A DNA stretch of 10,651 bases, taken from assembly GCA_050049995.1 (NCBI GenBank), contig JASFVE010000065.1, forward strand, positions 1 to 10,651, given 5' to 3'. How positions within the stretch are numbered: position 1 is the first letter of the stretch; every line of letters begins with the position of its first letter. A program made the translations under genes and the position numbers. This document shows, one piece after another, positions 5,871-10,086 of the stretch. The notes under the pieces are model-generated. The model saw only the letters and a program-made list of their open reading frames with translations, made no database searches and was not told the origin of the DNA. This DNA comes from Chlamydiota bacterium (GTDB lineage: Bacteria; Chlamydiota; Chlamydiia; Chlamydiales; SM23-39).

Positions 5871-6226
5871 TTAGGAAAGGCATGCAATCGCTGCTTAAAT
5901 TTTAAGCAGAGGAAAGTCTGGACTTCACAGGTGAAGATACCAGAGAAACCCTGGGGGCCGCAAGGCTACGGAAAGTGCAACAGAAAACATGTCCACTGCA
6001 TACTTTTTGCAGACAGAGTGAAAAATTTGACTTTGAGAGTCAAACACACTTAAGGCAACTTAAGGTGCTGCAAACCCTATCTGAAGCAAGACCTAAAAAA
6101 GGGAATGACTTATCACCAGAGTTTTCCCTGCGGATTGGTCGCATGAGGGCTTTGGCGACAAAGCCCCTAGATAAATGATTGCACAGCTTTTAGCTGAACA
6201 GAATCCGGCTTACAGACTTTTCCTAA
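5871..6226 (+). ncRNA. rnpB: RNase P RNA, bacterial type A
   Basis: GAGGAAAGTCTGGAC and ACAGAATCCGGCTTA (P4 halves), P1 ttaggaaagg/cttttcctaa, P2 tgcaatc/gattgca, P6 ggtga (5930-5934)/tcacc (6113-6117), plus GGAAAGTGCAACAGAAA, GCAAACCC, GAAGCAAG and AGATAAAT. Ends are approximate. Confidence 0.97.
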
Positions 6227-6232
6227 GAAAAT

Positions 6233-7232: not shown

Positions 7233-8309
7233 TTAAATAACCCCGACTTCAAGAGCTACTACATCTTGAGGTAAAACCTGCTCGGAAGTCCACTCAGCTT
7301 CCTTTTTAAGAGTTTTCTCAGAAATATATGAAAATGGAACTCCCTTCACTCTTTTTTGTAGGTCAAATAAATACTGATAAATTTTTTCAAAAAAACTTTC
7401 TTGTTGGTAATGCCTGTTTTTCACCTTCAGAAGGCTTATACTTCTTTCTCTTGCTTTTTCCAAATAGCCTAACTTCCAAATATAATGAAGGGTCTTCCAA
7501 ACTTCTTTAACAACAAAGAAAGGAACAACAAAACCGGATAAATAAGTATTCTGTAGGTATTCTGCCCTAGAAGAAAAATCCTTTTCAGAATAATTTATTG
7601 AAGCAAGCCCCCTATATGCTACATACCCTCCTAAAAAGCTACCCACACATCGAAAAACAACTTCAGAAAGCTTGTTAATTTTCTTAGAGAGTAAATATCC
7701 CTTTTTAAAAGCAGAAAAAAAGCTTACTTGAAAATTTTCCATTTTTATTACCACATTAGAAGCAGTAACTTGACTCTCATCTTCTTCTGGAAAATCAAAA
7801 ACCTCTTTCTCTAAGCTGTTATCCAGTGTTTGACTTAAAGGTGGAATATAATATGTATTTTGACTTCGTAAAAAAGCTAGGTGCTTTACAGCTTCATTTA
7901 AGATCAAATTTTTATCGATAATGCTATTTAATTTTTTTGCCTCTTCAATCCATTTATCTCTTATAATAGCAAAATTTCCAACATTCCACACATCCTTGTG
8001 AAATTTCAAAAGTTGCTTTCCAAGCATATAAGGAATACAAAAAGATAGCACTAAGCTTAAGTTTTGTTGCCCTTTTGAGGAAAATTCATTTTCAGGAAGG
8101 CCCCAAGTAGAAAAAGCTAAGTAACTATGAAATAAAGCACCCACAGTTAAGATTTGCAAACCCATCAAACTAGTAAAATGTGTTTTATTTTGCTTAAGTA
8201 CTCGATAGCCTTTATGAAAGGTTTTTAAAATCCCCTCATTAGTGTTTTCCACCCTTTGATATATAGCAGAAAGATCTTTTTCTTCATTCAGATTAACTTC
8301 GTATAGCAC
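7233..8309 (-). CDS. Hypothetical membrane protein with two ~170-aa internal repeats (paralogue A)
   Basis: Long ORF (the track gives 7233-8387). The start is reassigned to GTG at 8309 because AGGGGAG (8315-8321) lies 5 nt upstream, giving 358 aa, close to the neighbour's 361 aa. Each repeat has two hydrophobic segments. Confidence 0.75.
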   Translation of the reverse strand: MLYEVNLNEEKDLSAIYQRVENTNEGILKTFHKGYRVLKQNKTHFTSLMGLQILTVGALFHSYLAFSTWGLPENEFSSKGQQNLSLVLSFCIPYMLGKQLLKFHKDVWNVGNFAIIRDKWIEEAKKLNSIIDKNLILNEAVKHLAFLRSQNTYYIPPLSQTLDNSLEKEVFDFPEEDESQVTASNVVIKMENFQVSFFSAFKKGYLLSKKINKLSEVVFRCVGSFLGGYVAYRGLASINYSEKDFSSRAEYLQNTYLSGFVVPFFVVKEVWKTLHYIWKLGYLEKARERSISLLKVKNRHYQQESFFEKIYQYLFDLQKRVKGVPFSYISEKTLKKEAEWTSEQVLPQDVVALEVGVI

Positions 8310-8432
8310 AGCAACTCCCCTAATCAATTTGAAAATTGGCAAAACATAGTCGATATCAAAAAAATTATAAACAAATTTTTTAAACAAAAAAAACTTTCGC
8401 TTTACAGTTTTGTTAAATTTAAAAAAAAAATC

Positions 8433-9518
8433 TTAGTTCATTAAGTTTAAGAATTTTAAATGTAAGGGCAAAGGAAAGAAAAAACTATGTGGAATACGCT
8501 GCAAAAAAACATCCCTAACTTGGTTAAGCCTTTGAACAAGACTTAATTGAGTTGGATCTTGTTTTTTTACTTCTTTTATTTTTTTAGCATGTGTTGAGCT
8601 TAGTTTTTGCATAATTCCTATATTGGCAATTTGCATTGCAATATTATACGAAAGATTTAAAAGACCAATCACCTCTCCTGTCCACTCTATAGGATGACCA
8701 AGTATGCTCGGGATCTCTCCAGATTGATAATCGTGGATTCCCTGTAACGTAGAATCTTTTATGCCGCTAATATAGATGCGAATTACACCTAAAAAAAGTA
8801 TTTCTCGAGCAATAACGGCTATCTTTTTTTTCAATGAAACAAATTGCCATCCCATTTTAAATCGCTGGAAAAAGGATTGGTTCATTTCTTTTTCTATTTC
8901 TTGATATGAGCTTTGTAAATCAGTATCCACTTTGAGTAGATCTTCTTTGTCATCAACATCACTAAGATTTCCTGGATCAGGAAAATGACTAAGGGAACAA
9001 AAAGAATTGTATAAATACCTTTCTTTTAACTGCAGCTTTTCAAAATATATTTTTTCGCGGTCTTTTCTTGGCACATTTGCATTTGCAATATGAACTTGGA
9101 AAAGCTTATCTATTTTTGCTAAAGCTCCAACTGCCTGCAGGTTATTTAGTATATTCCACACAGATTTTCCAACAAAAAAAGATAAGGAACCCCATTCGGA
9201 AATATGCCCTTGTACCGGAGATATTCCCAGTTCTTTAAGCTCTTGTATAGTCGATAAATACGCTAAGTAAGCTGCCGTTGCAGAGCCCCCCATAACTCCA
9301 GTCGTGAAAACTCCACTCATAAAGCCTGCTATTTTATAAGCACACTTCTTCCAAGTGGAAGCTCCCTTTGTAATAACGCCCCATCCTTCCTTAACCAGAC
9401 CCGATGAGTTATATGATTCCACTGTTTTAAATAATTCGGATAGCGCCTTATTAACATTGAAGTTTTGCCCTTCTATGTCCTCTTGAAAAACTTCTCTCTT
9501 TACATCTGCTACTGCCAT
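8433..9518 (-). CDS. Hypothetical membrane protein with two ~170-aa internal repeats, each with GHxxEW (paralogue B)
   Basis: 361 aa ORF with strong SD TAAGGAG (9524-9530). GHISEW and GHPIEW are exactly 170 aa apart, with hydrophobic segments on either side. Confidence 0.8.
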   Translation of the reverse strand: MAVADVKREVFQEDIEGQNFNVNKALSELFKTVESYNSSGLVKEGWGVITKGASTWKKCAYKIAGFMSGVFTTGVMGGSATAAYLAYLSTIQELKELGISPVQGHISEWGSLSFFVGKSVWNILNNLQAVGALAKIDKLFQVHIANANVPRKDREKIYFEKLQLKERYLYNSFCSLSHFPDPGNLSDVDDKEDLLKVDTDLQSSYQEIEKEMNQSFFQRFKMGWQFVSLKKKIAVIAREILFLGVIRIYISGIKDSTLQGIHDYQSGEIPSILGHPIEWTGEVIGLLNLSYNIAMQIANIGIMQKLSSTHAKKIKEVKKQDPTQLSLVQRLNQVRDVFLQRIPHSFFFPLPLHLKFLNLMN

Positions 9519-9535
9519 TTTTTCTCCTTAATTAC

Positions 9536-9555
9536 TATGTAGCTTTAGCTACAAT
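9536..9555. promoter_or_regulatory. Palindromic operator 1 (putative MntR box)
   Basis: TATGTAGC-TTTA-GCTACAAT, with core TGTAGC-N4-GCTACA at 9538-9553, just upstream of the paralogue B SD. Confidence 0.7.
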
Positions 9556-9576
9556 ATTTATAAAAAAACGGCGATT

Positions 9577-9596
9577 TATGTAGCATATGCTACATA
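9577..9596. promoter_or_regulatory. Palindromic operator 2 (putative MntR box)
   Basis: Perfect 20-bp palindrome TATGTAGCATATGCTACATA. Same core as operator 1, with centres 41 bp apart. Confidence 0.75.
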
Positions 9597-9633
9597 GACA
9601 AGACAAGTAATATTTTTATTTTATTAAAAAAAT

Positions 9634-10050
9634 TTAACTTCGTTGTAAATATTCAGAGATTTTTGACAGAGTCTCTTGAGAAATATGATGTTCAATTCCT
9701 TCTACATCATTTTCTGCAGTAGCCTGAGAAACACCCAGTTTAAGCAAAAATTTTAAAAGGGTTTCATGCTTTTTTTTACTTTGATGAGCAAGCTTGTCTC
9801 CTTTTTTTGTTAAAAAAATAGGCCCTCTGGTTTGATTTTTTAAGTACCCTTCGAGCTCCAGTCTGGATAAAGTCCTAATTACAGTCACGTGAGATACTCC
9901 AAGGTGTTTTGCAAGGTCGCAAACTCTGGCTTCTCCTTTATTGCTAATTAGGTCTTGGATAAGTTCCGTATAATCTTCTGCTGATTCGATTAAATCTCTT
10001 TTACGCTTGATTTTAAAAGGATCTGCTCTAGTAAGGGGCTTGTTTTTCAT
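9634..10050 (-). CDS. mntR: DtxR/MntR-family metalloregulator, short E. coli MntR-like form
   Basis: 138 aa. AEDYTELIQDLISNKGEARVCDLAKHLGVSHVTVIRTLSRL winged HTH, KKKHETL, AENDVEGIEHHIS metal-binding segment. No C-terminal SH3/FeoA domain. Confidence 0.88.
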   Translation of the reverse strand: MKNKPLTRADPFKIKRKRDLIESAEDYTELIQDLISNKGEARVCDLAKHLGVSHVTVIRTLSRLELEGYLKNQTRGPIFLTKKGDKLAHQSKKKHETLLKFLLKLGVSQATAENDVEGIEHHISQETLSKISEYLQRS

Positions 10051-10058
10051 AAGAAGCT

Positions 10059-10086
10059 ATGTTAGAATTCTTTCCAATAAAAGCAA
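10059..10086 (-). promoter_or_regulatory. Possible mntR promoter giving a nearly leaderless mRNA
   Basis: TTGCTT (10086-10081), 16 nt spacer, TAACAT (10064-10059), ending 8 nt before the ATG. mntR has no SD. Confidence 0.35.

Follow-up and report, generated by a model that had tools for sequence, protein, structure and literature searches.

An MntR-linked superfamily of repeat-hairpin membrane proteins in Chlamydiota, with a candidate role in manganese import

The window analyzed here is a 10,651-nucleotide stretch of DNA that makes up the whole of contig C65 (JASFVE010000065.1) of a Chlamydiota bacterium, whose 98%-complete genome comprises 1,881,569 bases. Its minus strand carries, in one orientation, the regulator gene mntR, two palindromes and two further genes, B and A. 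This is the order given in an earlier note made from the sequence alone, which had proposed A and B as a Mn-responsive membrane system of an undescribed type. The features of the locus are as follows (G001 is a second genome of the same genus).

9634-10050, minus strand: mntR, encoding a short (138-residue) E. coli-type DtxR/MntR regulator
9577-9596 (core 9579-9594): MntR-type operator 1, 29.0 bits, the top-scoring site of the genome scan, present in G001 too
9536-9555 (core 9538-9553): MntR-type operator 2, 25.9 bits, 19 nucleotides 5' of the B start codon
9573-9606, minus strand: predicted sigma-70-type promoter of B, a weak match overlapping operator 1, with TTGTCT -35 candidates
9524-9529, minus strand: AAGGAG, ribosome-binding site of B as read from the sequence
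8433-9518, minus strand: gene B, 361 residues, two hairpin repeats, family 1; predicted Mn2+ importer
9192-9209, minus strand: B repeat-1 motif G104-H105-x-x-E108-W109, from sequence alignment
8682-8699, minus strand: B repeat-2 motif G274-H275-x-x-E278-W279, 98-100% conserved in a 106-row alignment
7233-8309, minus strand: gene A, 358 residues, a diverged two-repeat paralogue of B that lacks H-x-x-E and is restricted to the genus

The mntR product matches PF01325 and PF02742 over cut-off and has no FeoA domain. It scores 148.9 bits against NF008273, the NCBIfam model for Escherichia coli-type MntR (just below the cut-off of 153), and only 19.5 bits as DtxR, and its best PDB match is the MntR structure 2h09 (E = 1e-26), to which the EDY..E, H and EGIEHH motifs align. 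Equivalents of the Mn-binding residues of Bacillus subtilis MntR, which we take to be D8, E11, H77, E99, E102 and H103 in that protein's numbering, align in the window protein. These site motifs are kept in 39 of 40 homologues (34 with the strict pattern and 5 with EGxEHY), the remaining one being truncated.

The two palindromes between mntR and B proved to be as the earlier note described them: TGTAGC-N4-GCTACA has only these two exact matches in the entire genome. Allowing up to two mismatches yielded three matches in the window against a mean of 0.26 in shuffled sequence, and in a pre-filtered matrix scan of the genome the next-best site, third after the two operators, scored 16.0 bits (contig C31, 4130-4149). 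The box is a 20-bp palindrome that has the core TAGC-N4-GCTA in common with the enterobacterial consensus, which an excerpt of PMC1698941 gives as AACATAGCnnnnGCTATGTT, while its outer bases differ, reading ATGTAGC rather than the ACATAGC of E. coli and Salmonella. A GCTATGTT half-site, equal to half of the enterobacterial box and kept in G001, is located just 5' of mntR at 10051-10062, where no full palindrome is present.

To place the locus in the phylum, we scored 400 Chlamydiota genomes for mntR (one further genome was left out) and found it in 39, as 40 genes, all of whose loci were inspected, the window included. Thirty-six of the 40 genes adjoin a membrane protein of 205-430 residues belonging to one of two clusters, family 1 (21 loci, including B) or family 2 (15 loci), and a profile comparison supports homology between the two across 286 columns (probability 95.8, E = 7e-9). 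Since three of the four remaining loci belong to genomes with a boxed member elsewhere (G212, G266 and G235) and the fourth, L065, is the second mntR of G186, a superfamily member is present in 39/39 mntR genomes. Conversely, of the 28 genomes (out of 400) that have family 1, 23 also have mntR, as do 15 of the 16 (out of 340) that have family 2. The usual family-1 order is box, gene, mntR, and most family-2 genes are divergent from mntR, which makes the window order (mntR, boxes, B) an exception. In an MntR tree the partner family is clustered, requiring 7 changes compared with 15 when shuffled, a pattern that kinship alone may produce.

A box matrix was built from 30 exact family-1 sites and applied at a threshold of 9 bits. 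Such boxes lie 5' of 22 of 23 family-1 genes, a circular result because family 1 is the training set, and 5' of 12 of 14 family-2 genes (13 of 14 after correction of one start), which are outside it. At 7 of 8 gene regions in six genomes without mntR no box was found. The alternative that the operators are orphans left by a lost mntH was discarded, because in many Chlamydiota families the homologues go together with mntR and with this box, as the neighborhood check proposed alongside it revealed. Judged from sequence, this is a real, phylum-wide MntR regulon whose target appears to be an undescribed superfamily of membrane proteins, and comparative genomics lends good support to regulation of the family by MntR.

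Several neighboring genes were noted at these loci. The mntR closest to that of the window, at L065 4079-5481 in G186 (same family as the source organism), is flanked by the same ABC-F and xerC genes, and neither A, B nor a box lies between them; the other mntR of G186 has a family-2 partner. In G250, mntH (L093 54-1391) lies 2.6 kb from mntR with no box upstream, and the family-2 gene of that genome has two boxes. Genes that by eye resemble catalases occur just past mntR in three loci (L069 2596-4040, L070 2514-3959 and L066 5407-6879), two of them co-oriented, hinting at a link to peroxide stress, and ribonucleotide-reductase-like genes, also recognized by eye, lie close to mntR at L087 4861-8185 (G266) and L083 1486-2499 (G224). 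In the window itself, an RNase P RNA gene occupies 5872-6229 on the plus strand, between cdsZ and xerC. CdsZ, xerC and this RNA, together with the source names of the nearest proteins, assign the DNA to Chlamydiota.

The position of the boxes bears on the direction of control. A TTG precedes the first box by 9-10 nucleotides in 10 of 22 family-1 upstream regions and by 3-4 nucleotides in 9 of 13 family-2 regions, against a background of 0.019 per position; this fixed offset places the boxes on the predicted -35/-10 region, 20-80 nucleotides from the start codon. The best promoter match overlaps the box in 28 of 35 regions, a count made without a control and with a box that itself resembles a -10 element, and a strict promoter scan of the window did not list the predicted B promoter. 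A box over the promoter fits repression, as exerted by E. coli MntR on mntH, and so favors uptake over efflux, both of which the earlier note had entertained. Sections of a review (PMC8632737) describe E. coli MntR as repressing mntH and activating mntP, and B. subtilis MntR as activating mneP via several boxes. By that precedent B could be an MntR-activated Mn2+ exporter or detoxifier, a counterpart of MntP, and the tandem boxes common in the Chlamydiota set, the lack of an MntP match in this genome and the coexistence of family 2 with mntH in two genomes would agree with it. We nevertheless consider an exporter very improbable, owing to the placement of the boxes on the predicted promoter and the absence of a yybP-ykoY riboswitch from the 10 sources scanned. 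The known Mn exporters (MntP, CDF, TerC and UPF0016) likewise include MntR-linked membrane proteins, whereas the superfamily has no family match, an operator position suggestive of repression and no riboswitch found.

Neither A nor B gave anything over cut-off in Pfam or NCBIfam, which bears out the view that they are unrecognizable, and searches of the superfamily against Pfam, NCBIfam, PADLOC and PDB sequences returned nothing consistent. In particular, no NRAMP (PF01566) or MntP (PF02659) match was found in A, B or 22 family members, as had been stated in the earlier note for the motifs of these proteins. BrkB matches (best E = 0.00045), given by 4 of the 22 rows, were set aside as reflecting hydrophobicity. 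The proteins had been called hydrophobic, but this does not apply overall: both have a grand average of hydropathy of about -0.1 and instead show separate hydrophobic peaks, four in A (after correction of its start) and three in B, with a family mean of four. Both are internally duplicated, as proposed; the halves of A match each other at E = 5e-9, and those of B, which reach E = 0.03 when compared alone, both match the repeat profile strongly. Word-indexed homologue searches with B or with A recovered nothing beyond the query and a single close relative, and with the repeat alignment one protein, so that a full hidden Markov model profile search was required. Applied to 1.84 billion representatives, it produced 110 matches, of which one, P0112 (a fish G-protein-coupled-receptor-like protein), was dropped as false. 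Among the remaining 109 proteins, 85 have two repeats, two have four, and 22 are shorter than 250 residues; many of these are fragments, but six look like complete single-repeat proteins. Seven family-2 genes in contig interiors are single-repeat as well.

Each repeat opens with a lysine/arginine-rich stretch followed by a membrane helix; an acidic segment then leads to the second helix, which is weakly hydrophobic. The resulting charge asymmetry is positive-inside, with basic N-terminal flanks and an acidic outer end of each hairpin. GHxxEW is found in 128 of 205 repeats. All six apparently complete single-repeat proteins have it, as do both repeats in B and in the 16 rows nearest to it, the set in which repeat 1 reads HxxE. 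Based on these alignments, the superfamily is predicted to be built from one, two or four copies of a two-helix membrane hairpin. Four-repeat members at L133 5818-7797 (G309) and L134 2012-4039 (G029) have no box or mntR in the inspected stretch, and their motifs vary (G-E-x-x-E-W, G-H-x-x-E-W). Other members are broken, or split in two by a frameshift or stop close to where the repeats meet: L030 7045-8143 (G357), L069 4476-5506 (G393), L099 2852-3589 (G229), L136 5081-6332 (G080) and L029 3427-4109 (G029). These could represent decay, assembly error or natural splitting.

The AlphaFold2 model of B is all helical (mean predicted local distance difference test score 91.3, predicted template modeling score 0.85), with hairpins at 55-97/103-144 and 229-265/271-320. 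In this model the motif lies at the start of the second helix of each hairpin, at its outer end, and the conserved His and Glu share one face. A single-repeat protein was modeled with the same fold as a B repeat (score 86.6). Foldseek returned no match at E <=0.001 in PDB or BFVD, and VIA-align found generic helical hairpins only, with best Z values of 9.2 (ESCRT-III Snf7, root-mean-square deviation 2.1, 75 aligned) and 8.9 (deviation 1.5, 67 aligned), a result by which a new fold is neither demonstrated nor excluded. Matches in the ESM Atlas all scored 0.82 or lower and serve as leads only.

Gene A most likely starts at GTG 8309 rather than at 8387 as first assigned, because a GGGGAG site precedes this codon and G001 has an ATG at the same place. 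A and B are not unrelated proteins: the A repeat profile matches family 1 (a profile that includes B) with a probability of 93.4, E = 2.4e-7 and a score of 45.5, compared with 13.9 for reversed and at most 22.1 for block-shuffled controls, making them paralogues at the repeat level; comparison of whole-length A with the family profiles was not significant. A is found only in the source genome and G001, and neighborhood clustering of 20 other family-1 genes beside mntR recovered no A-like partner. This restriction to one genus argues that an A/B heteromer is not the general functional unit. The proposal of an A/B system thus stands for B, as an MntR-linked protein of undescribed type, and falls for the heteromer. 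By sequence comparison, A is a local duplicate of B and may modulate B or serve another role. B and A, which are separated by an AT-rich gap of 123 nucleotides, may be co-transcribed. Relative to G001, the ratio of nonsynonymous to synonymous substitution rates is 0.14 for both A and B, 0.017 for mntR and 0.034 for xerC; A and B are under purifying selection.

Linkage, operator conservation, homology, the repeat series and the predicted monomer fold are all computed, and the reading that we prefer, at a probability of about 0.62, is that B represents a new family of Mn2+ importer under repression by MntR. Here we infer MntR binding, repression, Mn as the substrate, inward transport and an inner-membrane location. 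In environmental Chlamydiota, MntR would control a single gene, with B as its membrane effector: Mn2+-loaded MntR would bind the operators over the promoter and shut the gene off, while low Mn would free the promoter and allow B to be made. In the membrane, the acidic end of B and its His/Glu pair would face outward, and B would then admit Mn2+. Neither NRAMP nor MntP has a match in the genome, which encodes a ribonucleotide reductase R2 close to PDB 4d8f/1syy, presumably the chlamydial Mn/Fe R2. Use of Mn/Fe enzymes by chlamydiae is mentioned in an extract of PMC9936198.

The same observations could be accommodated by an importer of another divalent metal (Fe2+, Zn2+ or Co2+), with a regulator retuned in the manner of YtgR for iron. 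DtxR-family proteins vary in metal, and chlamydial YtgR responds to Fe2+, as set out in a portion of PMC5599777; His/Glu ligands are not Mn-specific, and one boxed single-repeat family-2 gene, far from mntR in G266 (L151 2-2094), directly follows an open reading frame that by eye resembles a P-type ATPase. The regulator's bit scores, its site motifs in nearly all homologues and the MntR-like box speak against retuning, and we regard it as improbable. It is also quite doubtful that B is a Mn-regulated non-transporter, such as a metal sensor, a chaperone or an ABC-importer accessory comparable to E. coli MntS. MntR regulons do include MntS, which is not a transporter (PMC8632737, in part), and the weak hydrophobicity, the large soluble helical part and the motif variation from family to family would suit such a role. 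A superfamily member is, however, usually the one gene near mntR that has a strong box, and in this genome no other gene has one; it shows no linkage to ABC systems and belongs to a one-, two- and four-repeat series that suggests a symmetric assembly.

Several observations weigh against B as a Mn2+ importer. The alignments were seeded from mntR neighbors and related genomes are not independent, for which reason we give counts in preference to p-values, and one copy in G029, where mntR was not found, carries a weak, degenerate tandem box. No significant mutual exclusion with NRAMP was seen (p = 0.61), and mntR, family 2 and mntH co-occur in G142 and G250. The genome also has two ZnuA/TroA-type ABC systems that lack a box and could import Mn as well. 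Among 82 two-repeat proteins counted, 49 have DxxG or NxxG in repeat 1, family 2 carries a different motif and A none, the second helix of the repeat is only marginally hydrophobic, and the N-termini of family 2 are long (median 33 residues) and rich in Ser (19%), as is often so in type III secretion signals.

The last two points also agree with type III-secreted inclusion-membrane (Inc) proteins, which, made at low Mn, might act as a pore or trap for metal in the vacuole derived from the host. Like Incs, the superfamily has one or more bilobed, two-helix hydrophobic hairpins with helical flanks, and it is Chlamydiota-restricted in the named records seen, among them P0005 (Ca. Protochlamydia amoebophila), except for one labelled Halioglobus sp. 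Its N-termini, by composition alone, are Ser-rich and Lys-poor mostly in family 2, with family 1 mixed. A motif invariant over many families is unusual for Incs and counts against this assignment, as do the positive-inside charge asymmetry, MntR control and an often almost absent N-terminal leader (35 of 99 family-1 proteins have eight or fewer residues before the conserved core). The hairpin loops, with a median of 21 and a range of 15-29 residues in 49 repeats, satisfy the in-silico rule of fewer than 30 residues quoted in the relevant section of PMC3048545, but known Inc loops average 8 residues without K, R, D or E according to the same section, whereas the longer outer segments here have a median of 5 charged residues, and at least 1, between the hydrophobic cores. 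We therefore judge an Inc identity unlikely.

Returning to B as an importer, its natural forms with one, two or four repeats suggest a unit of four hairpins. A four-hairpin assembly, which for B would be a dimer, around one pore or binding site lined by His/Glu is possible, at somewhat less than even odds. A more tentative extension is that the superfamily constitutes a third class of bacterial Mn2+ importer, a channel of four hairpins with a His/Glu-ringed pore, working like the mitochondrial calcium uniporter (MCU) but of independent origin, and situated in the inner membrane or, more boldly, the inclusion membrane. The channel unit may then be a tetramer of single-repeat proteins, a dimer of two-repeat proteins or a monomer of a four-repeat protein. 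The comparison with MCU is by analogy only. Its motif is W-D-x-x-E-P, and that of the hairpins G-H-x-x-E-W, with His in place of Asp. MCU has a two-helix subunit, a tetrameric pore and ligands three apart at the pore mouth (D261/E264, as given in part of PMC9757755), to be compared with H-x-x-E here; unlike MCU, the superfamily has fused two- and four-repeat forms. PF04678 had no match at E <=1 in the genome or among the 49 repeats, and MCU was outside the top 50 of both fold searches and outside the Foldseek lists, an absence that does not exclude an MCU fold.

Among known systems, the MntR-mntH regulon of E. coli and Salmonella has the same short MntR, TAGC-N4-GCTA palindrome and operator at the promoter of a membrane-protein gene. 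Its target differs: NRAMP proteins have about 11 helices, whereas the chlamydial proteins have 2, 4 or 8 predicted membrane helices (4 in B) in repeated hairpins and no NRAMP similarity. An MntR-regulated TBDR-pTFP module of Stenotrophomonas, a bacterium able to grow in amoebae, is likewise a lineage-specific candidate for Mn acquisition that adjoins mntR and has an MntR box, as presented in an excerpt of PMC13217887, but pairs an outer-membrane beta-barrel with a thioredoxin-fold protein, an architecture unrelated to B. The HrcA-controlled effector wcw_0502, described in part of PMC12038028, was set aside as unrelated. Our literature search found no paper on a stand-alone MntR or on this family in Chlamydiota, although supplementary regulon tables or RegPrecise could list the box, and the papers found do not cover how environmental chlamydiae acquire Mn inside the host.

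Across bacteria, sections of PMC8632737 recognize only two conserved types of Mn2+ importer, namely MntH and MntABC as named in an extract of PMC9936198. The regulator and operator described here are of known kinds, and what is new is the membrane protein, to which we assign a probable function. If the assignment is correct, an MntR-controlled family unrelated in sequence and fold would represent a new class of transporter, and its series of one-, two- and four-repeat forms would provide a natural record of channel evolution by fusion.

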